Assembly (NCBI GenBank): GCA_000004695.1
Contig: CM000152.2
Span: 3,584,001-3,648,000 of the forward strand
Length of the DNA: 64,000 bases
Origin: Dictyostelium discoideum
Lineage: Eukaryota
Reading direction: 5' to 3'
The notes beneath the pieces are model-generated. The model worked only from the letters and a program-made list of their open reading frames with translations, was not told where the DNA came from and made no database searches. Below are positions 3,080-60,260 of this stretch, in pieces. Position 1 is the first letter of the stretch; each line of letters opens with the position of its first letter. The position numbers and the translations under genes were made by a program.

Positions 3080-5805
3080 TTACTGGTTGATGGTGAAGGA
3101 TGAGAGCACCAACAGTATCACCAACACAAACAATTGAAATACCTGCAATTGCCCACCTGATAGTTTGGATGATCTACCGTTTGATGATGGAGGAGATAAT
3201 GGTAATTGAATTTCTTCAATTTTAACATCATAATGGAATGATGTTGAGCTAAATTGGAGATATAATACTCCTGATGTTTCATTAACAAATGAATTTGAAT
3301 GGCATGACAAACAATCGGTACTATTTGTAATATCAGTTTCATTTGAACTTAGTTTTGGGTTACTATCATACAATGTCTCATTTGGTGATAAACTGCATTG
3401 CAAATTACATGAAAGAGATACATTTGTTGATGAAACTACCAAACTTGCATAAATAATACCTGATAAACTAACACCACCAACTGATATTGAAATACCATCT
3501 TTATTATTTTTAATGGTTGGAATAACTGTAATCATTGGTTTTAAATATGTTAATATTGCATTTGGTCCCAAATCTTCTCCAATATATGTTGAAACAGAGA
3601 GTTGACTCTCTTTACAATCAGCTCTAACTATTAAAATCTTTTCATTTTGAACAATTATTGTAGTGTTTTTATAATTTGCTAATACTTTAACTTTGAATTC
3701 ATCTCCATTTGACAATAAATTCTTACCAGAAACTGTGATAAAACCTCCACAAGCAATTGTTTTATTATCCTTATTAATTATACCATAAATAACAGGTGGA
3801 AATTTTAAATTAAATAATGATTCCATTTTAATTCCATCCACTGTAATATTAATTGGACCATTTTCATAGGAGTTCAATGTTTTAATAGTTAATTGATTAT
3901 TTGTTAATGTTAGAATTTCTGATGAAATATCATTACCATTGAAATAAACTTTAATATATGATATTGAGTTACCGAAATTATTTCCATAAAATGTAATATT
4001 ATATTGACCTTTAGAAAATTTACGATTCTCAATATTTGGTGGAGCATACGAATATTCATCACTAATTGTATCTGAATTTAATTGAAAAATGAATTGTTTA
4101 TTGATACCAGTGCCATATGGTGTTGAGCATGTTGTTACATAGAAACTAGAATTTGAATATTGTAATGATGGTGTTGAACATTGAGTAGATGATGATGAAT
4201 TACCAACTGTAATACTTGGTTGTGATGATGAACTAATTGGACAATCCATATAATATATTTCAATATTTAATGAACCGTTTGAAAGATTTGGTCTATTGAT
4301 TACATTTATTAATAGTGATGATGCTGAGATTGAAATTGTATTTGAGGTCATATTAGAACCAACCAATTTCACTCGAGTGAAATTAATATTAAATGTACTA
4401 CATCTTAAAAGAGGTAATTTAAATGTCAAATTCTTTTCATCAGACGATACATTTAATTGGTCAATTTTAATATTATCATTAATTCCATTACCATATAATT
4501 GAACGAATGATTCTTCATTTTTACCAAAATGTGTACCAATTAATGTAACAAAACCATTTGAATATGATCCACTTGATAACGTTGGAGTATTATATGTTAA
4601 TGTTACACTATGAGGATTTATTGAATTACAACCACCGAAATTAACGTTAACTGGTAAATTTTTACCACCATTTTGATTTGGATCTAATTTACATTTTAAT
4701 TCATTTGTATTTGATTTAATATATGTACATTGTTTATTACCAATTGTAATTGATGGAGTAAATGATGAATTTAAAGTAGAAAATAATTTGTCTCCTTGAA
4801 TTGTTACAATACCATCGGAATAATTTGATACTGATGATACTGATATAATTAATGGTGGGAAACAATGAGTATAATTCTTTTCAGCCGGGATTTCATTTAC
4901 CTTAACACTAATTGAAATTGGGCCTAGATCAGGTCTATTAACGTTATTCACTTGAATTTGTGTATGATTTACTGAAATAATAAAATTTGTTTGCTTAATA
5001 TCATCAAAATAAACCTCTACCAAGCTTTTATCTGTAAAGAAGTTATCACCATTAATTGATAATATTAGGTACCCTCCGTCAAAAAAAGTACTTGATATTT
5101 TAGGTGATTCGTATGAAAATGGAAAAAGATTATCCCCAGTTTCATCAAAGGCAAATTCAAAATATCCAGAGCCTGGTGGAACTACTACAGTAATATTATT
5201 ACAGTCAAAAGATGGATCAGAGAAATTACCTTTAACAACAAAAGATGTCATATAATCAAATGTAGTTAGAATGTGATTTGGACCACCCCTAGATCTTAAA
5301 TAATTACCAGTAATTACTATATCACCTCCAGATGTTTTTGGTTTATTACTATATTTCAAATTAGTTACAAATGGATAATCTAAAGATGAAAGATCAAATG
5401 AACACTCTTCAACTGGACTTGATACTTCTCTTGCACATACCTTACTTTCTATACTACCCCATAATCTTGAAAATGGCTCATCTGAATGGAATGAACAATG
5501 TCTCCTATTACCAATAACTAGACTACAATTAAAATAATTTGGTGCCATTTCATATCTTGGTGTTGTTTCGTTTTGATACAAAATTAAACGGGTTGGGTAT
5601 GATCGAAAACTTTCAAAAGTTATTGAAAATGATTTTTCATCAAATATTACATCTTTGAAAAATAAATTAATTGAATAAATAACATAAACAAATTATTTAT
5701 TAAAATATTATGATACTTACCTACTGACATTGGACGACCAACTGAATGTCCTGATTTAAAAATTGAGAATAAAAATAAAATCAGTAATATTATTTTCTTT
5801 TCCAT
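3080..5805 (-). CDS. Tgr-family, tgrC-like type I membrane glycoprotein with IPT/TIG repeats, 885 aa. Structure is join(5721..5805,3080..5652), with a GTAAGT intron at 5653..5720.
   Basis: Exon 1 encodes the signal peptide [29 protein letters not shown] (phase 1). Exon 2 is an 833-aa open frame with repeated CGG...ITI/TG.NF IPT-like motifs and many N-glycosylation sequons. A C-terminal TM helix ([13 protein letters not shown]) is followed by a short tail. The gene is paralogous (about 60-70% identity) to 46672..49406. Confidence 0.8.
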
Positions 5806-10964: not shown

Positions 10965-11273
10965 ATGGGAAAAAGAAAACCAATACCATCAATCAACATT
11001 GGTAATAACCTAAATAAAAAACTTAAATTTTCAAAACAAGATTCAGATCAACAACAACAACAACAACAAGAACAACAACCACAACAACCACAACAACCAA
11101 TTATAAAATATAAATCCAAAAGAGAAAAAGAAATCCACGAAAAGATTGATAAAATTAAATCTGAAAGAAAGTTTATTTATAAAAATGTAATTATTATTTT
11201 TATTATTATTATTTATTATTTATTATTTATTATATTAATTTATTAATTTATTTTATTTTATTTTATTTTATTT

Positions 11274-11343
<70 letters not shown>

Positions 11344-12077
11344 GAATATTTTAAATATAGGCAGAGAGACATGTTAAATTAAGTTTGGAATATGCTGGGT
11401 TGGCATTGAGTTTACCAGCGGTCTTGAAAGACTTACACAGAGCATTGGAAAAATTTGATGCACTTGAGTCCAGTTTGATAGCTGAGCTAGAGTCTTTAAA
11501 AATACCAGTAAAAAATGCCAGTACCATACCAGTTTTGCATCCTCCAATTAACCATGTTAATACAAGTATTGCTACAACTGCTGCTGCCAGTATCAACAAC
11601 AACAACAACAATGATAACACCATTACCACAACCACCACCACCACTACTATCAGCAATGACAATCTTGCTTCAACTACAAATTCTTTACCAGTTAACTCTG
11701 TACCAAGAACCACTGCCACTTTATCAGATGTTAACAGCCTTATTACTGCAACTCTTGGACCCACTACTGCTCCTACTATTGGTTCTTCTGCAACCACTGG
11801 TGATACTACTGCAATTGATGGTACAAACACCAATGTCACCACTGATACTACCACCATAGAAACAACCATGAAGAAAAAAGGCAGACCACCACTTTTTAAA
11901 GAAATTCCAGAAAATTGTTATGTCTGTGGAGTAACCGAAACTCCATATTGGAGAAGAGGTACAGACGAAGGTGTAATGGTTGACCTCTGTAATGCATGTG
12001 GATTGCGTTACATGAAATTAGAAAAGAAAGAGAGACTTTTAAAACAAAAAAATAGTACCAGTAATGTTTTGAACTAA
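10965..12077 (+). CDS. GATA-type zinc-finger transcription factor, 2 exons: join(10965..11186,11361..12077)
   Basis: Exon 2 encodes a C-terminal CYVCGVTETPYWRRGTDEGVMVDLCNACGLRYMK, a C-X2-C-X17-C-X2-C GATA finger. Exon 1 (MGKRKPIP.., poly-Gln) ends at a GTAATT donor. The intron carries a T65 tract and a TATAG acceptor, and the frame is conserved. Confidence 0.7.
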
Positions 12078-12189
12078 CCTCTTTCTAAATCTTTTTTTTC
12101 GTTAGTAATTTATATCAACTTTTTAATCAAATTCATTTTTATACATATTTTTATTAATTTCTTAAAAAAAAAAACAATTATTGTAATAT

Positions 12190-12245
<56 letters not shown>

Positions 12246-12559
12246 ATTTTTAATCTTTAGCATACAAACAATATTTTAAATATTAAAAAATACTACAATT
12301 TTATATATATAAAAAAATCCTTTTTAAATAATTTATTTTTGTAGTATAAAAAAAAAAATAAAAAAAAAATAAATAAAGAAAATAAATTATTTATTTGTTT
12401 GTTATATCTTTTTTTTTTTTTTCTTTTTTTTTTTTTTTTTGAACACAAATAATCTTTATTTTTTAATAATAAAAATAATAATTTTAAATTTAAATTTAAA
12501 TTTTCACTAAATTGTTTCTTAAAATAGGAATACAATTGATATTCAAAGTTAACTGCATA

Positions 12560-13538
12560 TGTTGTAGTGAAAAAAAAAAAAAAATTTCCCCACATCAACA
12601 ATCGGGAATTTTCACAGTAAAATACAATGTATTAAAAAAATGTCAAGCAAATAATAAAAAAAAAAAAAAAAAAAAAAAAAATTAAATAGAAAAATAAGTT
12701 TAATGTAAAGTGAATGTAAATTTTTAGTGGATTTTATCACTACGTAGCTTGACATTTTTTTTTTTTTAAATTTATTTACTTATTTATTTATTTACTTATT
12801 TATTTATTTTTTTATTTATTTTATTTATTTTAATTTATTTTTTTTTTTTTTTTTTTAATAACTCTTAAATCAAATAACCTTCAAATCGAAAAAAAATTTT
12901 AGTTGGTTATCATAGTTTAGTAAAAAAAAAAAAAAAAAAAAAAAAATTTATATCAAAGTTTATAATTTAAAAAATACAATAATGTATATAGATAATAAAA
13001 AATATACATTCCATACACACCAAATGTGTTGTGTCGTTTCATTTTTGAAAGAAAAAAATGAAAATTCCCACTATTACCACCAAACACATTGGCATTCATT
13101 TTTTTTTTATGTCAATAAATTAAATGAATACAAAAAAAACTCACACTCACCACCACACCCACTTCTATATATCAAATTTGTATTGCATTTTTATTTTGTG
13201 TCTTTTCATAATAATAACAAAACACACCAAATGTGTTGTGTCTTTTCATTTTTTAAAACAAAAAATACTATAATTGTATTTATTCTCTAGTGTCGTTTCA
13301 TTTTTGAAAGAAAAAAAGAAAACTCTCAATATTACCCCAAACAAATTGGCATACATTTTATGTCAATAAATTATATGAATACAAATTAAAAAAACTCACA
13401 CCATCTATACATCTTATTTGTATGACATTTTTATGTTGTGTCTTTTCATTTTCCAAACAAAATTCTACAACTGATTTCATTCTCTTGTATCGTTTCATTT
13501 TTTAAAAAAAATAATACATTCACAATAAATAAATAAAA

Positions 13539-13573
<35 letters not shown>

Positions 13574-13840
13574 GATCACGTTCATGTTTATTTTTGAGTG
13601 TTCTATTTATCTATACTAAATTCATGTTAAAAATAAATAAAATTAAATCGTTAAAAAATAAGAAAATTTGAATTTAATTATTCATTTTTTGTAATTGTTT
13701 TTTATATTATTTTTTCTTGCAAGGTGGAATTCCTTAAAATTGGTAAATTCTTAAAAAATGTCAAATGTAAGTATTAAGTATTTTTACTGTGAAAATTCCC
13801 AAAGTTTGTGGGGAAATTTTTTTTTTCCACTCTCTGTATT
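12560..13840. mobile_element. Non-autonomous element, about 1.28 kb, bounded by roughly 90-bp imperfect terminal inverted repeats. It carries an internal array of hairpin repeats.
   Basis: 12560..12650 is the reverse complement of 13745..13835 at about 85% identity (..aaaaatttccccaca..gggaattttcacagtaaaatac..). This TIR is related to the TIR of element 30791..31718. The interior holds three tandem about-230-bp units containing the palindrome cacaccaaatgtgttgtgtc / gacacaacacatttggtgtg. Confidence 0.5.
13005..13500. repeat. Tandem array of three units of the hairpin-repeat family (minus orientation)
   Basis: The unit is ..ccaatgtgtttggtggtaatagtgag..ttcaaaaatgaaacgacac..aaaaaatgaaaagacacaacacatttggtgtg. 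The same family is at 16495..16660, 19296..19330, 21215..21250 and 28420..29130. Confidence 0.7.
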
Positions 13841-21550: not shown

Positions 21551-22033
21551 TTATTGTCCTTGATTTGGTTGGTTTGGTTGGTTTGCTGCTGCTGCTGCTG
21601 CTGCATCATCCTCAGCGAATAACTGGGCGATGAGATTCATGTCAACTAAATCGTGAGTATTAACTGGTGTTAAAACTGCATAGTTAATATCAATATGGGG
21701 ATATTGTTTTTGTGTATATAATATGGCCTCGTCAACTTCAGCTCTGATATCCCAACCTGCTTGATCAGATCTTGCGAAAAAAATAGCAGCGGTGTCACCC
21801 ATTTTTGGGTACCATATTGGGTTTCTATTGAGTCTTGCTTTAAATCTTTTTCTGGCATTTGTTATGTAATTAGGTGAGGCGTAATCATAATTGGCACCGT
21901 TATTGGTAGCAGCCAAGGCAAGTACAGTTTGTGGTATTTGATCTAAATCTCTAATTTTTATTGCTTTTGTGACAATTACTTTTGAACAATACACACCATT
22001 GTCATTATATAAACTTGGGTTGATTGACGACAT
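21551..22033 (-). CDS. Hypothetical 160-aa protein, copy 1 of a duplicated gene
   Basis: Intact ATG-to-stop ORF with coding-like composition. It is nearly identical to 30124..30606 (2 aa differences) and ends in poly-Ala and NQP repeats. Confidence 0.65.
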   Translation of the reverse strand: MSSINPSLYNDNGVYCSKVIVTKAIKIRDLDQIPQTVLALAATNNGANYDYASPNYITNARKRFKARLNRNPIWYPKMGDTAAIFFARSDQAGWDIRAEVDEAILYTQKQYPHIDINYAVLTPVNTHDLVDMNLIAQLFAEDDAAAAAAANQPNQPNQGQ

Positions 22034-23900: not shown

Positions 23901-24518
23901 AATGTATAACTTTTTTTTATTTTTTTTAATAAATTTTTTTTTTTTTTTTTTTTTTTTATATGGATTGATGTATAAACAAAATAATTCAAAATTGTAAAAT
24001 TAATTATTAAAATTAAAAATAAAAATAATAAAAAATAATAAAAATTAATAATTAAAATTAAAAATAAAAATAATAAAAATATGAATTTTATTACTAAATC
24101 TTTTTTTTTTTTTTTTTTTAATTTTTATTCCCATTTTTCCTTTTTTTTTTTTTTTTTTTAGATTTACTGTACTTTACTTTATATTTGTCGTCAATGCATC
24201 ACTTTGAAAATTTAAAATACATAACAAAAAAAAAAAAAAAATTAAACAGTGCAGGAATTGATTTTTCAATTAAAAAAAAAGAAAAATCTCACTATTTCCA
24301 TGATTATTGTTTCTATTAATACTATAACCCCATTATTATTACCATTTATATTAATATTATTATAAATTGTTTTTTTTTTTTTTGTTCACCCCCAATAAAT
24401 TTATCACAAAATATGTCCTCATTCATTAGTTATTAAAGAAACTAAAAATAAAATAAAACAATAAATATAATTAAAATAACAAAATAAAATAAAATAAAAT
24501 AAAATAAAATAAAATAAA

Positions 24519-24614
24519 ATGTTATTAGAAATTCTCAACAGTTTAGCATCATTTTTTAGTAAGATATTCTCATTATTTGAAGGTAAAAAAGATATAAGAA
24601 AATTATTGATTGGA
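24519..24614 (+). pseudogene. ARF 5' fragment (first about 30 codons), fused to the antisense 3' part of a tgrC-like pseudogene
   Basis: [32 protein letters not shown] matches the ARF N-terminus, including the conserved (aaaat)n leader. The junction falls at a shared TTGGA. Confidence 0.7.
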
Positions 24615-26770
24615 ATTTCTGAAATCATTGGTTTTATACGTCAATGTTGTACTTGGTCCCTGGACGAACTCCTGTAGTATTTTTATTATTTGATTTTACA
24701 TTAACTTTGAATTCTTTGTCACTTGTCAATAAATTCTTACCAGAAACTGTGATATGACCTCCACAAGTAAGTGTTTTATTATCTTTATTTGTTATATGAT
24801 AAATGACAGGAGGTAATGTTAAATAAAAGAATGAATCCATATAATTACCATCTACAGTAATATTAATTGGGCCATTTTTATATGAATCCAATATTTTAAT
24901 AGTTAATTGATGATCTTTTAATTCTAGAATTTCTGATGAAATATCACTACCATTTAAATAAACTTTAATTAATGATGTTGAATTACCAAAATTATTACCA
25001 TGTAATTCAATATTAGTTCCATCATCTGAAATTGTACGATTCTCAACTTCAGGTGGTGCATATGAGAATTGATCACTGACTGTCTCTGAGTTTAATTTGA
25101 ATATAAATTGTTTATTAATACCAGTGCCATATGGTGTTGGACATGTTGTTTTATAGTAACTAGAATTTGATGATGGTATTGAACATAGTGAGGCTGATGA
25201 TGAATCACCAACAGTAATACTTGGTGCTGGTGAACTAATTGTACAATCCATATAAAATATTTCAATATTTAATATTCCATTTGATACTGTTGGTCTATTG
25301 GTTACATTTACTGATAATGATGCAGAAATTGAAAGTGTGTTTGCGGTAATATTAGAACGAGTGAAATTACTATTAAATGATCTACATCTTAAATGAGGTA
25401 ATTCAAATGTTAAACTCTTTTCATCAGATGATACATTAAATTTGCTAATGTTTGTATTATTAATTCCATCACCTATAATTGAATGGATGATTCGTTATTT
25501 GTACCAAGATTTGTACCAATTAATGTAACGATACCATTTGAATATGACCCACTTGATAATGTTGGAATATTATATGTAAATAATACACCATTAGGACTTG
25601 TTGAATCACAACCACCGAAATTAACTTTAACCGGTAAGTTTTTACCACCCAGTTCATTTTTTTCTTATTTACATTCCAATTCAGTTGGTGTTGATATAAT
25701 AAATGTACATTGTTTATCACCAATTATAATTGATGGTGTCAAAGATGAATTTAAAGTCGAAGATAGTTTTTCACCTTTAATTGTTACAATACCATCTAAA
25801 CGATTTGATAATGATGATATTGATGTTATAATTGCTGGGAAACAATGATTATAATTCTTTTCAATTGAGACACCATTTACGGTAATACTAACAGACATTG
25901 GGCCAGGCGCAACTCTATTAATGTTACTCACTTGAATTTGTGTATGATTTACTGAAATAATAAAATTTAGTTGAGTAATACCATCAAAATAAACCGTAAC
26001 CAACTTTTTATTTGTAAAGAAGTTATCACCATTAATTGTTATTATTTGTTTCAATGAGTCAAAAACGGTACTTGATATTTTAGGTGATACGTATGAAAAT
26101 GGTACTTTAAATACACCAGTTTCATCATAGTACAACCTAAAAGTTCCAGATCCTGGTGGAAATATTACAGTAATATTATTTAGAGTAGATCCATCAGAGA
26201 AATTACCTTTAACAACCAAAGGTTTAGAAGTATCAATGGAATTTAGAAGGAAATTAGGACCACCAAATAATCTTAAATATGAGCCAGTAATGACCCTATC
26301 TTCACCAGATGTTTTGGTTTTTTACTATATTTCAAATTGGATGCTTTTGGATAATATATTAAAGGCGAAACATCAAATGTACAATCCTCAACAGTATTTG
26401 ATATATCTCTAGCACATATCTTACTGTCTATACTACCCCATAATCTTGAGAATGGTTCATCTTAATGGAATAAACAATGCTCTCTCCATCAACTAGGGTA
26501 CAATTGAAATAATTTGGTGCCATTTCAGTTCTGGGTTCTTTTTCGTTTTTATACAAAATTAAACGGGTAGAATATGGGAGATTACTATTAAAAATAAATG
26601 TAAATGATTTATCATCATATATTACATCTAATAAAAAAAATTAATTACATAAACAAATTATTATAAATAATTAAAAATTTAATGATAATACCTATTGGTG
26701 ATGGACGATACATTGAATATCCTGATTTAAAGAACAAAAATAAAATCAGTAATATTATTTTCTGTTCCAT
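24615..26770 (-). pseudogene. tgrC-like pseudogene: 3' truncated with multiple frameshifts. The exon-1 signal peptide and intron are retained.
   Basis: Fragments 24634..25251 and 25665..26219 align to the intact paralogue 46672..49406. Exon 1 ([27 protein letters not shown] plus gtaagtat) lies at about 26696..26770. Confidence 0.8.
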
Positions 26771-30123: not shown

Positions 30124-30606
30124 TTATTGTCCTTGATTTGGTTGGTTTGGTTGGTTTGCTGCTGCTGCTGCTGCTGCATCATCCTCAGCGAATAACTGGG
30201 CGATGAGATTCATGTCAACTAAATCGTGAGTATTAACTGGTGTTAAAACTGCATAGTTAATATCAATATGGGGATATTGTTTTTGTGTATATAATATGGC
30301 CTCGTCAACTTCAGCTCTGATATCCCAACCTGCTTGATCAGATCTTGCGAAAAAAATAGCAGCGGTGTCACCCATTTTTGGGTACCATATTGGGTTTCTA
30401 TTGAGTCTTGCTTTAAATCTTTTTCTGGCATTTGTTATGTAATTAGGTGAGGCGTAATCATAATTGGCACCGTTATTGGTAGCAGCCAAGGCAAGTATAG
30501 TTTGTGGTATTTGATCTAAATCTCTAATTTTTATTGCTTTTGTGACAATTACTTTTGAACAATACTCACCATTGTCATTATATAAACTTGGGTTGATTGA
30601 CGACAT
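30124..30606 (-). CDS. Hypothetical 160-aa protein, copy 2 of the duplicated gene
   Basis: Identical to 21551..22033 except V14E and V36I. The 3' flank carries a small inversion relative to copy 1. Confidence 0.65.
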   Translation of the reverse strand: MSSINPSLYNDNGEYCSKVIVTKAIKIRDLDQIPQTILALAATNNGANYDYASPNYITNARKRFKARLNRNPIWYPKMGDTAAIFFARSDQAGWDIRAEVDEAILYTQKQYPHIDINYAVLTPVNTHDLVDMNLIAQLFAEDDAAAAAAANQPNQPNQGQ

Positions 30607-30790
30607 TCTTGAAAAAATAAAAAAATTAAAAAAAAAAATTTTTTTTGAAATGATTTTTATCTAAAATATCTCGAGATTTTATAAAAAAAATTAAACTTTT
30701 TTTGATTTTGCAGCGTCACCACTACTATGTAAAATATTTACAATGCATTTACAATGCAATTACATTGTGATTTGTCTTTAAGTAAATTAA

Positions 30791-31009
30791 TGTTGTAGGG
30801 AATTTTTTTTGAAATTTCGCTTTCTAAACGGCAGTGAATTTTTACACTAAAATACACTGTTTATACGTAGTGTAAAAATTCACTAAAATTTTTTTTTTTT
30901 TTTTATAAATTAAAAACAATTTATTTAATCAAAATAATAAAAAAACTAATTTTAAACAATTATTTGTTGTTTAAGAATTAAATAACAATTTAAATTGTTA
31001 GATTTGAGC

Positions 31010-31047
<38 letters not shown>

Positions 31048-31334
31048 TTTTTTTTTTATTTTTTATTTTTCTTTTTTTTTTATTTTTCATTTTTTTTTTA
31101 TTTTTTATTTTTTTTTTTTATTTTTTTTTTTTCATTTTTTTTTTTATGTAACGAAGACACAAAAATAAGTTAATATTAAATAAGTGAACAAAGACACTAA
31201 TTATAGTTGACCCGCATTTAAATAATAATAATAATAATAATAATTCTATTAACTCGAGTTTATAATTATAAATAATATAAATACTAAAAATAATTATATA
31301 AACAATAATGAATACCATAATTAAAATATAAACC

Positions 31335-31379
<45 letters not shown>

Positions 31380-31470
31380 ATTTTTTTCAATTTTTTTTTA
31401 TCGAACAATTTTATTTTATTCCCCAAAAATGAAAACAATCGATAAAAAAAAAAATTGAAAAAAATAATTG

Positions 31471-31502
<32 letters not shown>

Positions 31503-31718
31503 GCAAACTAAATTTTTTTGTTATAAAAAATAAATAACAAGCAAATAACTGAATAAAATTGGTTTTTTATTTTTCTGATTAAATAAATTGTTTTTTAATT
31601 TAATTATAAAAAAAAAAAAAATTTAGTGAATTTTTACACCATGCATAAACAGCGTATTTTAGTGTAAAAATTCACTGCCGTTTAGAAAGCGAAATTTCAA
31701 AAAAAATTCCCCACAACA
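30791..31718. mobile_element. Non-autonomous DNA-transposon-like element, 928 bp, with 76-bp terminal inverted repeats and a TTAA target-site duplication. No ORF.
   Basis: TIR-L 30791..30866 is tgttgtagggaatttttttt..aatacactgtttatac and TIR-R 31643..31718 is its reverse complement (2 mismatches). Flanking TTAA lies at 30787..30790 and 31719..31722. The uninterrupted paralogous site taaatTAACgtatccc is at 22209..22222. Confidence 0.75.
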
Positions 31719-31901
31719 TTAACGTATCCCATATTAATTTTATCTATAATCAGAGAGATATAAAACTATATTTCCCTAATTATAGATCAAACAAATAAGA
31801 ATCAATAATCTAATTCACAAATTCAATTTTAAAAAAAGGATAAAAAAATCAGGCAATAATAATTATGGGATGTGTAAAACATTCACAACAATTATATTTA
31901 T

Positions 31902-32102
31902 TTATTCATCGTTATGTTGACATGAATTTTGAACATCTTTAATAAGAAGAAATTGTTTTATATAGTCTGACATTAACAAACTAAACGATTCGGTGCATTG
32001 CTTTATTACTTCTGGTGTACTTGAATAATTCGATTTATTACATAGCGATTCCATCATACGAATACATAGAGAGTCTATTTGTTTAATTCCTTCTAAATCC
32101 AT
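31902..32102 (-). CDS. Island ORF, 66 aa, hypothetical
   Basis: ATG ORF in the compositionally atypical island, 37 bp from the next ORF. Confidence 0.3.
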   Translation of the reverse strand: MDLEGIKQIDSLCIRMMESLCNKSNYSSTPEVIKQCTESFSLLMSDYIKQFLLIKDVQNSCQHNDE

Positions 32103-32138
32103 CTTGAATGTTTTGTAATAATGATTGGTTTTTTTATT

Positions 32139-32378
32139 TTATAAATTGTTTGTGATATGTTTATATAACCGGAATAATTCTTTGTCTTCTTCACGAAATA
32201 GTTCTTCGGAATCTTTATAGTGCAGTCTAAAAAAGCCAGTAAATTTACCTGTTTCGTCATCAAGTATTGGTACGTGTTTTATATTCGATTTCAAATATTG
32301 AATTTTTAAAATGAAATTATTTATAGTTGCTACAACTTGTCTATGTGATAAATATATCTCGTCTTCTTCTCCTTGCAT
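32139..32378 (-). CDS. Island ORF, 79 aa, hypothetical. Possibly a HicB-like partner of the adjacent HicA-like ORF, but this is speculative.
   Basis: Divergent from the HicA-like ORF with a 75-bp spacer. The segment HVPILDDETGKFTGFFRLHY weakly resembles the HicB N-terminal beta-strands. Confidence 0.3.
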   Translation of the reverse strand: MQGEEDEIYLSHRQVVATINNFILKIQYLKSNIKHVPILDDETGKFTGFFRLHYKDSEELFREEDKELFRLYKHITNNL

Positions 32379-32453
32379 GTTTTAAAATGATTTATTTGAA
32401 TAATAAAATTGATTTAAAGAAATAAAATATATAGAAATGTATATAAAAAAGAA

Positions 32454-32642
32454 ATGAAATATTCAAGAGTTGAAAAAACCCTCAAAGAAAATGGTTGGGT
32501 AATGGAACGTATGAAAGGGGGTCACGCACAATTTAGGAATGATAGTGGTGGATCGACTACTGTTCCGTATAATGGTAATAAAGATATACCAATTGGTACA
32601 TTAAAAGCCATCGAAAAACAAACTGGTGTGAGTATTATATAG
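32454..32642 (+). CDS. HicA/YcfA-family toxin-domain protein, 62 aa
   Basis: MKYSRVEKTLKENGWVMERMKGGHAQFRNDSGGSTTVPYNGNKDIPIGTLKAIEKQTGV fits the HicA consensus (..L.k.GW..vr.kGSHh.F.h......tvP.H..kdl..GTl.sIlKQaGl) along its whole length. It uses codons rare in the host (ggg, cac, gca, tcg, ccg). Confidence 0.6.
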   Translation: MKYSRVEKTLKENGWVMERMKGGHAQFRNDSGGSTTVPYNGNKDIPIGTLKAIEKQTGVSII

Positions 32643-32659
32643 TTTATTTATTTATTTAT

Positions 32660-32944
32660 TTAAAAACCAATTATTGTGTTGTATACATCACGGATATTAT
32701 GATGTTTATGATTAAAGAACATGGGATTTATGGGACCATGTGAAAATATTTCCTCACGTGTTGGCATTGGTCTCATTTCTGGTTCTGTGATAATGTTGTA
32801 GTATTGTTTGAGAATACTATATTCTTTATATGTTTTTACTTCATTTGTTTTTAACATTTGAGCTAGTATCATTTGTGTTTGGAGCGCAGATTTTATTTGA
32901 TTATGTGTATCCATTTCGTTGTTATATGTGTATGTTAAAAACAA
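32660..32944 (-). CDS. Island ORF, 94 aa, hypothetical
   Basis: ATG ORF 18 bp downstream of the HicA-like ORF, on the opposite strand. Confidence 0.35.
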   Translation of the reverse strand: MFLTYTYNNEMDTHNQIKSALQTQMILAQMLKTNEVKTYKEYSILKQYYNIITEPEMRPMPTREEIFSHGPINPMFFNHKHHNIRDVYNTIIGF

Positions 32945-33046
32945 TAATGATTATGATTTTATATTTTTTTCTTTTTGACTTTTAAACTGTTGTATCAGTG
33001 TAGTATTGTGCTGGTTGAACAGCAACCGTTAATTGTTCTGTTGATG

Positions 33047-33481
33047 TCATACCAGCTGGAGGAAGCGAATATAGACGTAAATTAAGTGGTGTCGCTGAGC
33101 CAAGGGAAAGCACTTTGCAATAGCAGATTTACCGGTAGAGTCAACACAAATGAATGAACAATATGCACTGGTAACCCTGGTTGGAATGGTAGTTGATGTC
33201 CAAGTGAACCCGAGCATCTTATCTGCGTATCCACCGGTGTTTGCTGGTAATGTGAGTGTGGAGAAATATATTGTGACTTGACCTTTCGATCTATTGTACG
33301 CGAAAATGGCACTTAAACCTGGAATTGTTGCGATTGGGGTTGTGTTGTTAATTGATGATATCACATGTACAGTCAAAGATATTTGATGGTATGAGAAGTT
33401 ATCGGAACCAAAAACCTTCCCCGATCGATTTATGATTCTTCCATTGTCTTGTAAAATTAAATCTCCAAATATAGATGTCAT
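33047..33481 (-). CDS. Island paralogue family member P1, 144 aa
   Basis: The N-terminus MTSIFGDLILQDNGRIINRSGK is shared with 34324..34740 and 34907..35353. The protein is beta-rich and has no signal peptide. Confidence 0.5.
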   Translation of the reverse strand: MTSIFGDLILQDNGRIINRSGKVFGSDNFSYHQISLTVHVISSINNTTPIATIPGLSAIFAYNRSKGQVTIYFSTLTLPANTGGYADKMLGFTWTSTTIPTRVTSAYCSFICVDSTGKSAIAKCFPLAQRHHLIYVYIRFLQLV

Positions 33482-34323: not shown

Positions 34324-34740
34324 ATGACATCTATACATTGTAATTTAGTTTTGCAAGACGGTGGTAGGATCATTAGTAAAGACGGCAGTGCGCAAGCACA
34401 GGGGATCGGCAACAGCGAAATCATCCCATTCACAACAGACGCATTCATAACGTCAACTTTTCCTGACAACCCACCAGTTGGAAGTCCAAAGAGAAAGACA
34501 ATTCAGTGTATCGCTTACAAATACAGAAAAGGACCATCGTCATACACTATTAGGGTCTCAATCCCATCTATTTCTTTTCCAATGGGAGACTATGATGGAC
34601 ACTGTTTGGGTTTTATCCAGCCATCGGCATCATTGGGGATCAAAGTGCGTATTACATACTTTGGGTTCTTTCAATTTACAACTGATACTGGCACAGTAAA
34701 AACAACTAAAAACAGTTCAATTATGAACTATGGGGGATGA
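34324..34740 (+). CDS. Island paralogue family member P2, 138 aa
   Basis: Starts MTSIHCNLVLQDGGRIISKDGS. About 42% GC, with runs such as gcgcaagcacaggggatcggcaacagcg. Confidence 0.5.
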   Translation: MTSIHCNLVLQDGGRIISKDGSAQAQGIGNSEIIPFTTDAFITSTFPDNPPVGSPKRKTIQCIAYKYRKGPSSYTIRVSIPSISFPMGDYDGHCLGFIQPSASLGIKVRITYFGFFQFTTDTGTVKTTKNSSIMNYGG

Positions 34741-34906: not shown

Positions 34907-35353
34907 ATGACATCTATATTTGGAGATTTAATTTTACAAGATGGAGCTAAAATAATTCGTAGGGACGGTTCATCTTTAATTCCATCTAGAACCATCAGAA
35001 ATGCCACCATTAATATTGGAACCATGACCAATACCTCAACACCTGGTAGTTTGATAACTATACAGGCTGAAGCAACATTTATCATAGACGACGATAAGTA
35101 CGTCGAAATGCTCATAGGTATGAAATTTATACCAACTTCAACACACAATGGGAGAGTCATGGTAATCTCTGGCCTTCCATTAGATTTGGTATCAACAAAA
35201 CCACCAAACGGATCATGTATGGTTACAGGTGACGATAACTATGCAATTATTACAATGGCACATTTCGATAGATGGGTAACTGGTGTACCACAAGCACAGT
35301 TAGCATCAACAATTCCATTATCCGGGTTACCTACAACAACCCATCTTCTTTAA
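34907..35353 (+). CDS. Island paralogue family member P3, 148 aa
   Basis: Starts MTSIFGDLILQDGAKIIRRDGS. It shares the internal motif MLIGMKFIPTST with P1 (MLGFTWTSTT). Confidence 0.5.
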   Translation: MTSIFGDLILQDGAKIIRRDGSSLIPSRTIRNATINIGTMTNTSTPGSLITIQAEATFIIDDDKYVEMLIGMKFIPTSTHNGRVMVISGLPLDLVSTKPPNGSCMVTGDDNYAIITMAHFDRWVTGVPQAQLASTIPLSGLPTTTHLL

Positions 35354-42078: not shown

Positions 42079-42749
42079 GAAAAAATAAAAACAAATAAAA
42101 AATAAATAAAAATAAAAAATAAATAAAATAAAAAAAAAATAAATAAATAAATAAAATAAATAAATAAATAAATAAATAAATAAATTAAAAAATTAATGTA
42201 TGAATTAGTAAATAAATAAATTAATATTTTTACTAATTTTTTTTTTTTTTATTTTCAAATTAGAGAATGATCATTTGGTATTACAGAGAAACTAGAAATC
42301 CAGCGATAGACTTGTTCAAAATCTTTTTTAAGCCAATACAACGCTCAATTAAATTATTATTTTTTAAAATCACATATTCACAACTATACAGTGTCAATAA
42401 TCAAAGCGCTTTGAAAATTTAAAGTACATAACAAAAAAAAAAAAAAAAATTAAACAGTGCAGGAATTGATTTTTCAATTAAATGAAATTAAAAAAAGAAA
42501 AATCTCACTATTTCCACGATTATTGTTTCTATTAATACTATAACCTCATTATTATTATTACCATTTATATTAATATTATTATAATTATTTTTATTATTTT
42601 TTTTTTTTTGTTCACCCCCAATAAATTTATCACAAAATATGTCCTCATTCATTAGTTATTAAAGAAACTAAAAATAAAATAAAACAATAAATATAATTAT
42701 AATAACAAAATAAAATAAAATAAAATAAAATAAAATAAAATAAAATAAA

Positions 42750-43245
42750 ATGTTATTAGAAATTCTCAACAGTTTAGTATCATTTTTTAGTAAGATATTC
42801 TCATTATTTGAAGGTAAAAAAGATATAAGAATAATAATGATTGGACTTGACCGTGTAGGTAATCCAATACTTTTATATAAATTAAAAGTAGGAGATGTTG
42901 TTTCAACCATTCCATCCATTGGATTCAATGTTGAACTATTGAATATAAAAATTTAAATGATAGTTTAGGATGTAGGTGGCCAGTATTAAATTGGCACATT
43001 ACAGAAACACTATAATCATGGTTCAAATGAAATCATCTTTGTAGTGGATAGAACTAATTGTGAAAGAATTAATCAAGTTAATGAAGAAGTTGATAATCTT
43101 TAATTCAAGATGAATTAAAAGGTAAATTCTTTAAATTTAAATTCAATTAAAGATAGAAAATGGTATATTCAACCATGTAGTGCCATTAAATCAAATGATA
43201 TATATGAAGGATTTGATTGGATTGCAAATTCACTCAATAATGAAT
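42750..43245 (+). pseudogene. ARF-family GTPase pseudogene (internal stops and an internal deletion)
   Basis: Aligns to 2248..2814. GKST is lost, stop codons follow NIKI, and a central block is deleted. The 5' leader (aaaat)n is conserved. Confidence 0.8.
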
Positions 43246-46671: not shown

Positions 46672-49406
46672 TTAAAATTTTTTACCTATAAATTTTTTCA
46701 CACGAAAAGGTATTTTAAAGTAATAGGCAAGAGCACCGATAGCAAGAGCACCACCAACACTACCAATTGTAGAACCTATTATTAAACCATTTGATGGTTT
46801 GGATGATTTAGTTTCAACATCTCTTTGACTAACGTTTGGTGATGGAGATAATTTAATTTCTTCAATTGTGACATTATATTGAAATGATGTTGAGTTAAAT
46901 AGGAGATATAATACTCCTGATGTATTTTTCACACTTGAACCGGAATGGCATGATAAACAATCAGTATTACTATTTGTAATATTAGTTTCACTTGAATCAC
47001 TATCATCAAGTATTTCATTTGGTGATAAACTACATTCTAAATTACATGAAAGAGGAACAGTTTCTGATGAAACTGTTAAGCTTGCATTGAGAATATCTGT
47101 AAAACTATAACCACGAATTATTGCTAAAATACCTTTTTCAATTTTATTTTCAATGGTTGGAATTTCTGAAATCATTGGTTTTATATAGGTCAATGTTGTA
47201 CTTGGTCCTGAACGAACTCCAATGAATGTTGTAACAAAGAGTGAACTCTCTCTACTTTCATCTCTAACTATTAATATCTTTTCATCTTGAGCAAATACTG
47301 TGGTATTTTTATTATTTGATTTTACATTAACTTTGAATTCTTTGTCACTTGTCAATAAATTCTTACCAGAAACTGTGATAAGACCTCCACAAGCAAGTGT
47401 TTTATTATCTTTATTTGTTATACGATAAATGACAGGAGGTAATGTTAAATAAAATAATGAATCCATATAATTACCATCTACAGTAATATTAATTGGGCCA
47501 TTTTCATATGAATCCAATATTTTAATAGTTAATTGATGATCTTCTAATTCTTGAATTTCTGATGAAATGTCACTACCATTTAAATAAACTTTAATTAATG
47601 ATGTTGAATTACCAAAATTATTACCGTGTAATTCAATATTAGTTCCATCATCAGAAATTGTACGATTCTCAACTTCTGGTGGTGCATATGAGAATTGATC
47701 ACTGACTGTCTCTGAGTTTAATTTGAATATAAATTGTTTATTAATACCAGTACCGTATGGTGTTGGACATGTTGTTTCATAGTAACTAGAATTTGATGAT
47801 GGTATTGAACATGGTGAGGCTGATGATGAATCACCAACAGTAATACTTGGTGCTGATGAACTAATTGTACAATCCATATAATATATTTCAATATTTAATA
47901 TTCCATTTGATACTGTTGGTCTATTAATTACATTTACTGATAATGATGCTGAAATTGAAAGTGTTTTTGCGGTAATACCAGAACGAGTGAAATTAATATT
48001 AAATGATCTACATCTTAAATGAGGTAATTCAAATGTTACACTCTTTTCATCAGATGATGATACATTAAATTGGCTAATGTTTGTATTTTTAATTCCATCA
48101 CCATATAATTGAATGGATGATTCGTTATTTGTACCAAGATTTGTACCAATTAATGTAACGATACCATTAGAATATGATCCACTTGATAATGTCGGAATAT
48201 TATATGTAAATGATACACCATTAGGACTTGTTGAATCACAACCACCGAAATTAACGTTAACTGGTAAGTTTTTACCACCCAATTCATTTGCATCCAATTT
48301 ACATTCCAATTCAGTTGTTGTTGATTTAATAAATTTACATACTTTATCACCAATTGTAATTGATGGTGTCAATGATGAATTTAAAGTTGAAGATAATTTT
48401 TCACCTTTAATTGTAACAATACCATCTAAATGATTTGATACTGATGATATTGATGTTATTATTGCTGGGAAACAATGAATATAATTCTTTTCTATTGAGA
48501 CCTCATCTACGGTAATATTAACAGACATTGGACCGGGATCAACTCTATTATAGTTATTCACTTGAATTTGTTTATGATTTACTGAAATGATAAAATTGGG
48601 TTGGTCAATACCATCAAAAGAAACCTTAACCAAGTCTTTATCTGTAAAGAAGTTATCACCATTAATTGTTATTATTTGTTTTGATGAGTCTGAGACAGAG
48701 CTTGATATTATAGGCGATTCGTATGAAAATGGTACAGGATTATCCCCAGTTTCATCATAGTACAACCTAAATTTTCCGGATCCTGGTGGAAATGTTACAG
48801 TAATATTATTACAGTCAAAAGATGGATCAGAGAAATTACCTTTAACAACAAAAGGTTTATTTACATCAATGGAATTAATAAGGAAATTAGGACCACCAAA
48901 TAATCTTAAATATGAGCCAGTAATGACTATATCTTCACCAGATGTTTTTGGTTTTTTACTATATTTCAAATTGTATACTTTTGGATAATATACTAAACCC
49001 GAAGCATCAAATGTACAATCCTCAACAGTATTTGATTTATCTCTAACACATACCTTACTGTCTATACTACCCCATAATCTTGAGAATGGTTCATCTGAAT
49101 GGAATAAACAATGTCTCTCTCCATCAACTAGAGAACAATTGAAATAATTTGGTGCCATTTCAGTTCTGGGTTCTTTTTCGTTTTTATACAAAATTAAACG
49201 GGTAGAATATGGGAGATTACTATTAAAAATTAATGTAAATGATTTATCATCATATATTGCATCTAATAAAAAAAATTAATTACATAAACAAATTATTATA
49301 AAGAATTAAAAATTTAATGATACTTACCTATTGGTGTTGGAGGATTCATTGAATATCCTGATATAAAGAACAAAAATAAAATCAGTAATATTATTTTCTT
49401 TTCCAT
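46672..49406 (-). CDS. tgrC1: Tgr-family, tgrC-like type I membrane glycoprotein, 889 aa. Structure is join(49328..49406,46672..49262). It is the partner of the divergent tgrB-like gene.
   Basis: Exon 1 encodes [27 protein letters not shown] (GTAAGT donor). Exon 2 is an 839-aa open frame with IPT/TIG-like repeats, the [15 protein letters not shown], and the 14-aa tail [14 protein letters not shown]. The symbol is tentative. It is chosen because this is the only intact divergent B/C pair in the window, and that architecture is known for D. discoideum tgrB1/tgrC1. Confidence 0.75.
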
Positions 49407-49929: not shown

Positions 49930-52441
49930 ATGAAAGTAATATATATTTATTTGTTATTATTATTAGTTTGTAAATTTTTATTTGTTAAATCAAGTTGCTC
50001 TTTAAAAGTTGGAAAAATAGAATGTACAAAAGAATTAGAAACGTTTTTATTATATAATGAAACAGTTGTCAATGTAAAAATGGATACAAATGGAGTAAAA
50101 TATTATTTTAATGCACTCGAGTTTCCTTACAAGAATCTGTTATGCGATTTAAATATTGATATTAAATTCACACCAGAAATCCCATCATTCCCAAATATAC
50201 CTACAACAGGTGGAGACTTCGGGTTCACCTTCAACTTTCCTTGCGACTATAGGCGAAGAGTCAAACGAATAGAAATAGAAAGAACTATATTATCTCTCAG
50301 TTTTGATACAAGCAAAAATCAGTTCGTTACTTACTTGAATCCAGGGTGTGGTCCTTTCAATATTAGTAGTAGTGGGATTCAGATTTTGAGTACAACTTAT
50401 GAAACTGGTGCCATACCCAATGTACCAATTCTCGATGATGATAAAGGTATTTTAACTATTCAAGGTAGTAATCTCTACAATACATCAATTAAAATTTATT
50501 CAAATAACATTCTTAAAGACACCAACCCTAGTGGTGCACTAGATGCTTCCCATTCTTCTGTCACATTCTCCGCTGAAGAATTTTTAACCCCAAATAATTG
50601 GACAATTGAAGTCTCAATATGTGGCTCATTTTATAAGAGCTATTCCTTCCCATATTTTCCAAAGCTCGATAAAATGGAGGGGGTACTTAATGATAATGGT
50701 GGTAATATGGTATTTACTGGAAAGCATTTAAGACCAAAACACAATGTTACTGGTACTTTTGGTAATAAAACTATTGAGTGTCTCACATCCAATTCTTCAA
50801 AAAGCATAACATGTACCATTCCAAGTCGTAAAAACTATGGTTTTCTTGGTTATGATATTCCTGTAACAATTACTGTAAGTAGGATACAATATATATATTA
50901 TAAATACATATTGTTATCATATAACATTACTAATTATTTTTTAAATAATATTTTATTAATAGATTGACGGTGAATATAAATCAAATACAATTAAAATATC
51001 TTATGATCTTCCATTGATTCAAAGTGTTTCACAAAGGGGTAATTCACAGATTTTCGATGTGACCGGTGTGTATTTTTCTGGTGTTAAGAATATGACTGTA
51101 ATTACTGGTAAAAACATGAAAACTGATATTATCCAAAAGAAAACTGCAACATTGGAAGAACCTGGATTTTTTATTGAAAGTAATTATACCATTTTTATAT
51201 TCCTACCAAATAATACTCAACCTGGTTTTATGAACCTTGTTGTTGGTGACGGTGGTAGTGAAACATTTACATCTCCAAGATATAATTTCAAGATCACTCC
51301 AACTATTACTGCTGGCCAAACCTTCAACTCAACTACAAGTGGTAATGATTTAGAAATTAAAGGCATCTTTATGAGAACTGTTGATTCTGATGGTAGAGAT
51401 GTTCCACTAACAGTCAATAGTGGGTCTGGTGGTCTTGTTTGCAATCCATTAAAAGATGGTGATGGTTTATTATTCACCTGTGTTCTAGGACCTGGTTTCG
51501 GTTCAAGCCATACAATGAACGTTTACTATAATCTTATACCCATTGGATCATTTACCGTTAGCTACAATCCTCCATACCTTGGCACAAGTGAACAAGAAAA
51601 AGATGGGACCATTAAAATGAATGGTAAGGACTTAGGGGAATCTGTTAAGGATTCAATTATGACCGTTGTTTATTCTGATGGTAATACAGTAAATGGAACC
51701 GTAATTAAAAGTAGTCATACTTCTCTTATATTTAGGTATCCTATAGGCAATAGAAACACTGCAAGCTATATATTCCAACTTGGTGATCAAAAGAGTAATA
51801 AGGCAGGTCCATTCACTTTGAAACCTATTATTGAAAACACTGATCCTGCTGTACCATGTGGCGGTGGAGTGGTTACTATCAATGGTCATTACTTTTTTAA
51901 CTATACCAAAGATACCACAACTATTACCATTGGTAAAGTACCATGTAATATTTCTTCAATTAGTGAAACAACCATTGAATGTGTAATTGTACCAAATCTT
52001 AGATCTCTTTCTCCATACTACACATCTGGCACTAAACCATTAGTAATCAGTAGCTCAAATCCTGGTACTGAAAAGGTCTACCAATTGACACCTGCAGGTC
52101 TAAACTATAAGTTTGCACCACCAACCATTACAAATACATCTGCAATTGATCAAACCGCTTTAATTACTATATATGGTACATCATTTGGTGATGCAAATCT
52201 TGAAATTCTAATCAATGATAAACCATGTACACAACCTGAAATTAACATTCACACCTATTCTAGTTTAACCTGTAATGTAACCAACTATGATGAAATGAAA
52301 ATATATAACTACTCTAATACTAAATTCAATATTAGTATCTCTGTTGATGGTCAGTACTTTATTGCTGATATTTTCCAATTTAAATGTAAGTTACATACAA
52401 TCATATCATTCTCTATCTTATTATTTATTACTATTGCTGTA

Positions 52442-52479
<38 letters not shown>

Positions 52480-54435: not shown

Positions 54436-54828
54436 ATGAATGCAGAATTATTTCAATTTCCAAATAATAAAAAAAATTTAAAAAGAGCTCATGATGACAG
54501 TGATGAAGCCTTTTTCAATAAAAAGAATGATAATAGTTTAAAAGAATTCAGAACTGATGTTGTTTTTCAAGATTTTCAAGTAAACAATTATAATTATAAT
54601 TTTAATCAAACTCAACAAAACTTTTATTCAATGGGTAGCATCCAAAGCCACACACCAAGTATTGTAGTTCCAAATCCATCAATTTCAAAGCCTCCACAAC
54701 TAATAAATCAAAATAATATTAACATTCAATCATCAATTCCAAATATTAATATAACTAGTAATATTAACCAAAACAATTTAAACGTTTTAAATAGAAACCC
54801 AAAAAATTGTTTAAATCATTTTTTTTGA
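54436..54828 (+). CDS. Possible small Asn-rich protein gene, 130 aa
   Basis: ATG ORF with a partly unique N-terminus (MNAELFQFPNNKKNLKRAHDDSDEAFF). Low complexity otherwise. Confidence 0.25.
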   Translation: MNAELFQFPNNKKNLKRAHDDSDEAFFNKKNDNSLKEFRTDVVFQDFQVNNYNYNFNQTQQNFYSMGSIQSHTPSIVVPNPSISKPPQLINQNNINIQSSIPNINITSNINQNNLNVLNRNPKNCLNHFF

Positions 54829-56962: not shown

Positions 56963-58047
56963 ATGAAAGTTTTATATATTTATATATTGTTATTGGTTTG
57001 TAAATTTTTATTTGTGAAATCAAGTTGCTCTTTAAAATATGAAAAAATAGAATGTACAAATGAATTTGAAACATTTGAATTATATAATGGTACTGTTGTC
57101 AATGTAAAAATGGATACAGTTGGAGGGAGATATTATTTTAATCCACTAAAGTTTCCTTACAAGAATTTGCTATGCGATTTAAATATTTTAATTAAATTCA
57201 CACCAGAAATCCCATCATTCCCAAATATACCCACAACAGGTGGAGAATTCGGGTTCACCTTCAACTTTCCTTGCACCTATAAGCGAACAGTCAAAGAAAT
57301 AGGAACAGAAAGAACTTTATTATCTCTCAGTTTTGATACAAGCAAAAATCAGTTCGTTACTTACTTGGATCCAGGGTGTGGTGCTTTAAATTTGTTTTTT
57401 GAAAATATCCAGATTTTGAATTCAACTTTTGAAACTGGTGCCATACCCAATGTACCAATTCTCGATGATGATAAAGGTATTTTAACTATTCAAGGTCGTA
57501 ATCTCTACAACACTTCAATTAAAATTTATTCAACTAACATTCTGAAAGACACCAACCCTATTGGTGCACTAGATACTTCCCATTCTTCTGTCACATTCTC
57601 CGCTGAAGAATTTTTAACTCCAAATAATTGGACAATTGAAGTCTCAATATGTGGCTCATTTTATAAAAGCTATTCCTACCCATATTTACCGGTGCTCATC
57701 AAAATGGAGGGGGCACTTAATGATAATGGTTGTAATATGGTATTTACTGGAAAGCATTTAAGACCAAAACACAATGTTACTGGTACTTTTGGTAATAAAA
57801 CTATTGAGTGTCTCACAACCAATTCTTCAAAAAGCATAACATGTACCATTCCAAGTCTTAAAAGTTATGGTTCTCTTGGTTATGATATTCCTGTAACAAT
57901 TACTGTAAGTAGGATACAATATATATTATAAATACATATTGTTATCATATAACCAATTACTAATTATTTTTTAAATAATATTTTATTTAGATTGATGGAG
58001 AATACAAATCAAATACAATTAAAATATCATATGATATTCCAAGGTAT
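56963..58047 (+). pseudogene. tgrB-like gene, truncated. Exon 1, intron 1 and the first 19 codons of exon 2 remain, then the match ends in a stop.
   Basis: Exon 1 at 56963..57904 is 314 codons and about 85% identical to 49930..50874. A GTAAGT intron lies at 57905..57990. After ..ISYDIP the alignment ends and a stop follows. Confidence 0.75.
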
Positions 58048-60105: not shown

Positions 60106-60228
60106 TTAAAAGTTTTTTCTTAAATATTTTTTTGCGCGACTTATTATTCTAAAAATAAAGAAACAACCAATGATAGAACAACTAGAAGCAATACCAATAA
60201 ATACAAAAGCTGCAGTTAAACCAGCTGA

Positions 60229-60260
<32 letters not shown>

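Follow-up and report, generated by a model that had tools for sequence, protein, structure and literature searches.

A solitary HicA-family toxin gene of probable bacterial origin resident in a Dictyostelium discoideum chromosome

The 64-kb stretch of Dictyostelium discoideum DNA analysed in this study (hereafter the window) carries a gene, DDB_G0280655, whose product is a HicA-family toxin domain of full length and whose locus is genuinely eukaryotic and nuclear. It is highly likely that this hicA gene is an authentic and intact part of the chromosome in the AX4 lineage, that it is of bacterial origin, and that it is now solitary, with only its 189-bp ORF detectably foreign and its cognate hicB gone. 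A survey of type II toxin-antitoxin (TA) families detected no homologues other than PIN in eukaryotic genomes (PMC3141249), and the hicA of D. discoideum represents a clean, non-artefactual exception to the stated absence of non-PIN type II toxins from eukaryotes. The family assignment itself is already known, as the UniRef name of the protein (Q54V25) is 'Addiction module toxin, HicA family'; DDB_G0280655 is catalogued in UniProt/UniRef but unstudied, and a literature search found no discussion of it or of any other HicA from Dictyostelium or another eukaryote. What the present analysis adds to the UniProt entry is the solitary state of the gene, the divergent hicB/hicA arrangement of its nearest relatives, the result that the proposed partner is not HicB, and the location in the tgr cluster.

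The gene is placed as follows:

32454..32642, plus strand: hicA coding sequence, DDB_G0280655 / XP_641106 / UniProt Q54V25 (ORF list, Pfam, exact look-up, AF2, Foldseek)

In the ORF list, the frame runs from an ATG at 32454 to a TAG at 32640-32642 (62 codons plus the stop) and encodes the 62-aa protein MKYSRVEKTLKENGWVMERMKGGHAQFRNDSGGSTTVPYNGNKDIPIGTLKAIEKQTGVSII. A first-pass annotation, made from the DNA sequence alone, had claimed that this ORF belongs to the HicA family over its whole length and carries the core and C-terminal motifs of that family, and both claims are upheld. The protein contains the GGHAQF core and the C-terminal block TVPYNGNKDIPIGTLKAIEKQTG, and it matches Pfam PF07927 (HicA_toxin) with E = 1.8e-17 across profile positions 2-58 of 58, scoring 63.6 bits where the gathering cutoff is 27 bits. 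The PHROG 353 'toxin' profile also matches (E = 3.8e-18), and a PDB sequence search retrieved solved HicA chains with E-values from 1.5e-8 to 7e-4 (9svk_A at 1.5e-8, 4c26_A at 2.2e-7). A HMMER search of 1.84 billion representative proteins identified 356 relatives at E <= 1e-3. The score against a profile made from 79 bacterial relatives was 99.7 bits, with a rank that is inflated by the selection of that set for similarity to the query. When a HicA profile was run over the 1,353 stop-to-stop frames of the window, the sole match was the hicA ORF (9e-30). Judged by these comparisons, the match to the HicA family is far beyond chance.

An AF2 model of DDB_G0280655, computed from an eight-sequence alignment, has a pLDDT of 93.2 and the order a1-b1-b2-b3-a2, with helices at residues 3-12 and 47-57 and strands at residues 16-21, 24-28 and 34-38. 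The best six Foldseek matches of the model in the PDB are all HicA proteins (TM 0.70-0.87, rmsd 1.1-2.8 A) and include 6g26, 1whz, 4c26, 5yrz_B and 4p78_C, while lower matches are noise. DDB_G0280655 is accordingly modelled as a small single-domain protein with the dsRBD-like HicA fold, and it is basic (10 K+R versus 6 D+E, net charge +4). Two sites within the gene bear on its predicted activity:

32517..32525, plus strand: codons 22-24 (GGG GGT CAC), Gly22-Gly23-His24 of the b1-b2 turn, with the His in the catalytic position (codon list, column counts)

32571..32573, plus strand: codon 40 (AAT), Asn at the position of a second His in most relatives (column counts, alignment)

The Gly and the catalytic His of the b1-b2 turn in HicA are both needed for toxicity (reviewed in PMC11594946), and this His/Gly context, singled out for checking at the outset, is intact. 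In an alignment of 147 sequences, Gly22 and His24 are each found in 146 relatives and both are retained in DDB_G0280655, as is the nearly universal Gly14; His24 aligns with residue 24 of Burkholderia pseudomallei HicA(H24A) (PDB 4c26). According to PMC3969222, G22C and H24A abolish the toxicity of B. pseudomallei HicA, while G14C, S23A and P41A do not. At position 23 of DDB_G0280655, Gly (6 of 147 relatives) replaces Ser; because the S23A protein stays toxic in that same account (PMC3969222), this suggests that Gly23 is harmless. Position 40 is His in 114 of the 147 relatives (78%) and Asn in 6, and DDB_G0280655, with Asn, reads VPYNG where its relatives read VPYHG. The His that follows the 'VP' motif is common in the family but does not define it; in B. 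pseudomallei HicA, His40 is spatially near His24, and the available part of PMC3969222 gives no mutagenesis for it. Asn40 may lower the activity of DDB_G0280655. It is conceivable, but unlikely, that S23G and H40N have left the fold in place while weakening catalysis, making of the toxin a harmless small RNA binder. Such a change would explain how the amoeba tolerates the protein without an antitoxin, and the residue lost at position 40 is the second, spatially close His of most relatives (PMC3969222). However, Gly22 and His24 are the only residues shown to be essential and neither is altered, a substitution at position 23 is tolerated without loss of toxicity (PMC3969222), and Asn40 and Gly23 are each natural variants of bacterial relatives that generally keep an adjacent HicB.

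Bacterial contamination or mis-assembly of the reference genome could in principle account for such a gene in a eukaryotic assembly, given that HicA is otherwise a family of prokaryotes and phages and that type II toxins besides PIN are said to be absent from eukaryotes (PMC3141249). The hicA gene lies on a 6.36-Mb contig of D. discoideum AX4, and an independent second assembly (GCA_054883475.1) has an identical hicA sequence at the syntenic place of a 6.43-Mb chromosome; over 20 kb of surrounding DNA, the AX4 window and the second assembly differ by 0 mismatches and only 10 gap openings. AT-rich DNA of the Dictyostelium type (0-16% GC) abuts both ends of the hicA ORF, which has 35% GC in a window of about 22% GC, and third-base usage in hicA is not distinguishable from that of resident genes (p = 0.2). 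The identical gene and context in two assemblies, the host-type flanks and the third-base usage exclude contamination for practical purposes, and we regard it as vanishingly improbable. The neighbours in the window are typical Dictyostelium genes, among them two V4 genes, ArfK, a GATA-finger ORF, a protein kinase and at least five Tgr-type (TIG / Ig_TgrO1) ORFs. The claim that a HicA is encoded in the nuclear locus of an amoeba thus stands: the gene is DDB_G0280655 of D. discoideum AX4, with the same context in both assemblies.

The relatives of DDB_G0280655 point to a bacterial source. The nearest is P0011, at about 60% identity, followed by P0171, P0170, P0169 and P0172 at 50-58%, although closer relatives may hide inside a 50% cluster of the representative-protein search. 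The contigs of these nearest relatives (from run SRR13180922 for P0011 and P0169, and from ERZ27317072 and ERZ28594829 for P0170) have 29-35% GC, and the genes adjoin restriction genes of the Mrr or Eco57I type; at the nucleotide level, hicA shares two blocks of 72-78% identity with the genes of P0011 and P0169. Best identities were 51% in GTDB species genomes, spread over Myxococcales, Alphaproteobacteria, Acidobacteria and others, and 53% in JGI metagenome contigs. HicA relatives are common on viral contigs, where full-length identity to DDB_G0280655 reaches at most 48%, and there is therefore no sign of a virus as the vector. All relatives with inspected context are on bacterial or viral/phage contigs. 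The 90% cluster of DDB_G0280655 has one member, and no orthologue from another dictyostelid came to light, in a setting where newer Dictyostelium annotations are without calls for ORFs this small. No remnants of other bacterial flanking genes (Mrr, Eco57I or others) were found within 29-39 kb of the window, and the detectable foreign segment consists of the 189-bp toxin ORF only. GC3 is 0.24 in the Dictyostelium gene and 0.15-0.30 in the nearest bacterial hicA genes; because the latter are equally AT-rich, composition cannot date the transfer. Babela massiliensis, a parasite of amoebae with a 27%-GC genome and HicAB (PMC4378268), offers a lead to the donor and is mentioned here as a lead only. 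One further protein scored as a HicA relative, P0043 (1569 aa, E = 6.7e-7, six stretches), is a bacterial cell-surface-type repeat protein; since it is a tandem array of Ig-like repeats, the match is most likely repeat-driven and spurious, and P0043 is not to be taken for a multi-HicA protein.

A HicB-like ORF was present within 600 bp in 83 of the 85 bacterial loci with HicA relatives, and in 76 of these 83 it was co-directional and immediately downstream of hicA, with a median gap of 5.5 bp. The arrangement around the Dictyostelium gene is different, and its elements are the following:

32379..32453: 75-bp spacer between the start codons of the divergent DDB_G0280653 and hicA, presumed to be a shared promoter region (GC 0.11; sequence)

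32660..32914, minus strand: DDB_G0280657, an 84-aa orphan convergent with hicA, the two stop codons 17 bp apart (exact look-up)

32139..32378, minus strand: ORF79, exon 1 of the orphan DDB_G0280653 (ORF list; the annotated protein P0175 has its residues 1-70)

31902..32102, minus strand: ORF66, an unannotated 66-aa ORF directly downstream of ORF79 (ORF list; absent from the protein collection)

The first-pass annotation had noted that no co-directional HicB adjoins hicA, and this was confirmed: there is no co-directional ORF after the gene, stop codons abound in all three plus-strand frames beyond it, and the annotated gene that comes next is convergent. A profile of 90 HicB sequences, which recovered 89 bacterial ORFs as a positive control, left all 1,353 stop-to-stop frames of the window unmatched (best E = 4.3), and a tblastn search for HicB in the window returned nothing. 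Neither Pfam nor the HicB profile detected a DNA-binding partner at the locus that could serve HicB-mediated autoregulation. The gene is monocistronic, lying between divergent and convergent eukaryotic orphan ORFs in AT-rich DNA, and the layout is not that of a prokaryotic operon. An adjacent HicB having been sought and not found, the Dictyostelium locus is not a HicAB module; with only the toxin ORF detectably foreign, hicA is at most the remnant of one.

The divergent 79-aa ORF described by the first-pass annotation does exist (ORF list), but the suggestion that it is a candidate HicB partner found no support. ORF79 has no match in Pfam, NCBIfam, PHROGs or the PDB, reaches an hhalign probability of only 0.1% when compared with the HicB alignment of the nearest relatives, and is not matched by the 90-sequence HicB profile; with blastp and tblastn also negative, it was rejected as a diverged HicB. 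Its AF2 model (pLDDT 54.8) is too poor to read. DDB_G0280657 was likewise rejected as a HicB or partner (no Pfam, NCBIfam or PHROG match; hhalign probability 0.2% against HicB), as was ORF66 as a HicB (no Pfam or NCBIfam match; hhalign probability 0.3%). Homologues of DDB_G0280653 and DDB_G0280657 were sought and none were found. The annotated model of DDB_G0280653 (80 aa) splices residues 1-70 of ORF79 to an exon of 10 residues near 30700; the atypical intron that this requires is about 1.4 kb long and spans a 130-nt inverted repeat. This gene model looks doubtful. ORF66 starts 36 nt downstream of the ORF79 stop, and removal of a 102-nt GT-AG intron (32194 to 32093) could fuse both ORFs into one product of 124 aa.

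A partner unrelated to HicB could in principle have replaced the antitoxin, with DDB_G0280653 or DDB_G0280657 neutralising or regulating a domesticated HicA in a eukaryote-specific two-gene module that is possibly tgr-linked. In favour of this, ORF79 is divergent and upstream of hicA, just where the nearest bacterial relatives have hicB; the four tiny ORFs of the locus form a tight cluster around hicA; and Tgr/TIG genes surround the locus. We nevertheless consider this quite improbable, as both orphans lack detectable similarity to HicB or to any family and lack any homologue, the structural model of ORF79 is of low confidence, DDB_G0280653 depends on its atypical intron, the newer annotation has no call for any of these ORFs, and no link connects HicA to Tgr function. 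The absence of calls concerns the annotation of GCA_054883475.1, which has no gene call for ORF66, ORF79/DDB_G0280653, hicA or DDB_G0280657 even though the DNA is identical (positions 11244-13611 of the extracted locus L007 correspond to about 30600-33000 of the window). The identity of the DNA indicates that the newer pipeline drops small genes, including the transferred hicA.

The window lies in a tgr gene cluster. Tgr-type ORFs are found at 3080-5581 (minus), 24634-25251 (minus), 46672-49191 (minus), 49930-52447 (plus), 56963-57931 (plus) and 60106-60693 (minus), at least five of them with TIG / Ig_TgrO1 matches. The ORFs at 46672-49191 (minus) and 49930-52447 (plus) stand head to head, about 740 bp apart, in the manner of the allorecognition genes tgrB1 and tgrC1, for which they are a candidate match only; hicA is about 14 kb from this pair. 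A published supplement equates tgrB1 with DDB_G0280689 and tgrC1 with DDB_G0280531, and DDB_G0280691 is at 54436-54828 of the window. The region around hicA also carries segmental duplications. The V4 (vegetative-specific protein) genes at 21551-22033 (minus) and 30124-30606 (minus) fall into one 90%-identity cluster, and a repeat of about 440 bp with 92% identity is found at 24203-24618 and 42410-42849, 18 kb apart. The 130-nt inverted repeat (30787-30916 and 31593-31722) is 92% complementary, has 676 nt between its arms, and contains long poly-T/poly-A runs. It sits between a V4-like gene and the cluster of small ORFs, and an 80-nt part of it recurs near V4 copies; it may be a repeat that accompanies V4, or else a small foldback element. 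A search for repeats on both sides of hicA, which might betray a mobile vehicle, found none; the one strong inverted repeat is that upstream of the ORF cluster. Three paralogous orphan ORFs at 33047-33481 (minus), 34324-34740 (plus) and 34907-35353 (plus) all start MTSI..L.LQD.G.II and have no Pfam, PHROG or NCBIfam match. Two of them are DDB_G0280663 and DDB_G0280665, with a GC of 0.38-0.41, which is high for the D. discoideum genome. Together with DDB_G0280661, 0280669 and 0280673, the MTSI-starting orphans make up a GC bump at 32-38 kb. A larger foreign island over the high-GC orphans at 33-38 kb was considered and rejected, as they have no phage or bacterial family matches. No tRNA or Rfam RNA genes were found in the 64-kb window.

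For the present status of the gene, it is quite plausible, at close to an even chance, that selection maintains hicA for a functional product that binds RNA or acts as an RNase, and the same strength attaches to its being a silent or nearly neutral passenger; some third status is improbable. Selection is argued from the erasure of the flanking bacterial DNA while hicA stays open and family-typical, and from substitutions that avoid conserved columns. The seven closest bacterial relatives share 20 invariant columns, and DDB_G0280655 keeps 17 of these; in variable columns it has the majority residue in 19 of 41. This difference indicates that the protein evolved under HicA-like constraint, the test not telling in which host; the constraint may predate the transfer. 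The case for a neutral passenger is made from the singleton status of the gene, the lack of an expression record among the sources searched, the missing newer gene call, and a position squeezed between orphans with a 75-bp spacer.

In its more specific form, the passenger reading is that hicA is a silent relic, left behind recently or by luck from a transferred hicB/hicA fragment. On this view it has no meaningful expression and no role in the amoeba, and it is still intact only because so short a frame has so far escaped disabling mutations. This is a plausible account, which we hold tentatively. DDB_G0280655 is alone in its 90% cluster, and the searches turned up no relative closer than about 60% identity; it is uncalled in the newer genome annotation; it is confined by orphan ORFs 75 bp upstream and 17 bp downstream; and the surrounding tgr/V4 region is repeat-rich and duplicated. 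In the available parts of the supplements searched for expression and proteome evidence (those of transcriptome, comparative-genomics and proteome papers), DDB_G0280655 was not found. On the other hand, the flanking bacterial sequence, including hicB, has been eroded to 0-16% GC, while the 189-bp ORF is open, full-length, family-typical and at 35% GC, and its substitutions spare the conserved columns. In DNA so AT-rich, stops should arise easily, and an open frame of 62 codons would not be expected to survive for long under neutrality.

The HicA protein, if made, would be expected to act like other HicA toxins. By analogy with the family (PMC3969222, PMC11594946), this small basic protein with the dsRBD-like HicA fold would bind RNA through its basic surface, and His24 of the b1-b2 turn would serve to cleave RNA independently of the ribosome and of translation. 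As no HicB masks the His24 site, the cell would have to tolerate HicA in another way, which could be low or conditional expression or an activity weakened by the change of His40 to Asn. A still more elaborate possibility, which we consider unlikely, is that selection maintains a domesticated bacterial HicA RNase, encoded by a solitary gene within the polymorphic tgr allorecognition cluster, for use as a stress, anti-bacterial, anti-viral or kin-conflict ribonuclease. Its restraint would then come, in place of HicB, from control of its expression or from an unrelated orphan neighbour (DDB_G0280653 or DDB_G0280657).

An expressed and active hicA would reveal how an RNase toxin from bacteria can be kept by a eukaryote in the absence of the antitoxin, and would provide a simple system for the domestication of toxin genes, in an organism that offers knock-out, inducible expression and growth on bacteria. 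If it is silent, hicA would be one more small relic of gene transfer in the genome of a bacterivore.

Compared to known systems, the closest counterparts of the Dictyostelium gene are the divergent hicB/hicA pairs of its nearest bacterial relatives (P0011, P0169, P0170, P0171 and P0172; loci L001-L006), whose HicA proteins are 50-60% identical to DDB_G0280655 in amino acids over the full length. The bacterial pairs and the Dictyostelium gene are alike in being AT-rich, of the same length and without a co-directional hicB. They differ in that the bacterial pairs keep a 131-aa HicB, divergent and 294-300 bp upstream, whereas Dictyostelium has a 75-bp spacer and no HicB, and in that the bacterial proteins have Ser23 and His40 where DDB_G0280655 has Gly23 and Asn40. 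The 131-aa divergent gene of these relatives is a true HicB (PDB 9svk_B, 7.3e-16; 5yrz_A, 8.5e-6). Of the 85 loci examined, 4 showed the divergent layout, all of them nearest-relative loci, and their spacer is constant at about 300 bp. Neighbouring genes in L001-L006 include Mrr_cat/NA-iREase1 or Eco57I restriction genes and SLFN/AlbA_2 genes, and these surroundings look like a defence island.

Among characterised proteins, the best-studied HicA is that of B. pseudomallei (PDB 4C26, 6G26), which superposes on the DDB_G0280655 model with TM 0.82 and rmsd 1.1 A at 38% identity; both are basic and have Gly22 and His24 at identical positions. The B. pseudomallei toxin is paired with and masked by HicB, has been shown to be toxic and has a role in persister formation, according to PMC3969222 and PMC11594946, whereas DDB_G0280655 is without HicB and is known from sequence and a model. 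The HicA of 9SVK is the best sequence match among solved structures (E = 1.5e-8, full length), and the HicB chain of the same entry is also the best match for the HicB of the nearest bacterial relatives; unlike the solitary Dictyostelium hicA, 9SVK is a complete toxin-antitoxin complex. The HicA of phages (PHROG 353) gives a strong profile match (3.8e-18), but viral relatives do not exceed 48% full-length identity. Finally, the PIN domain and the Dictyostelium HicA are both nuclease domains of the prokaryotic TA type in eukaryotic genomes; PIN is ancient and widespread in eukaryotes, whereas the Dictyostelium HicA is a singleton of a single species.
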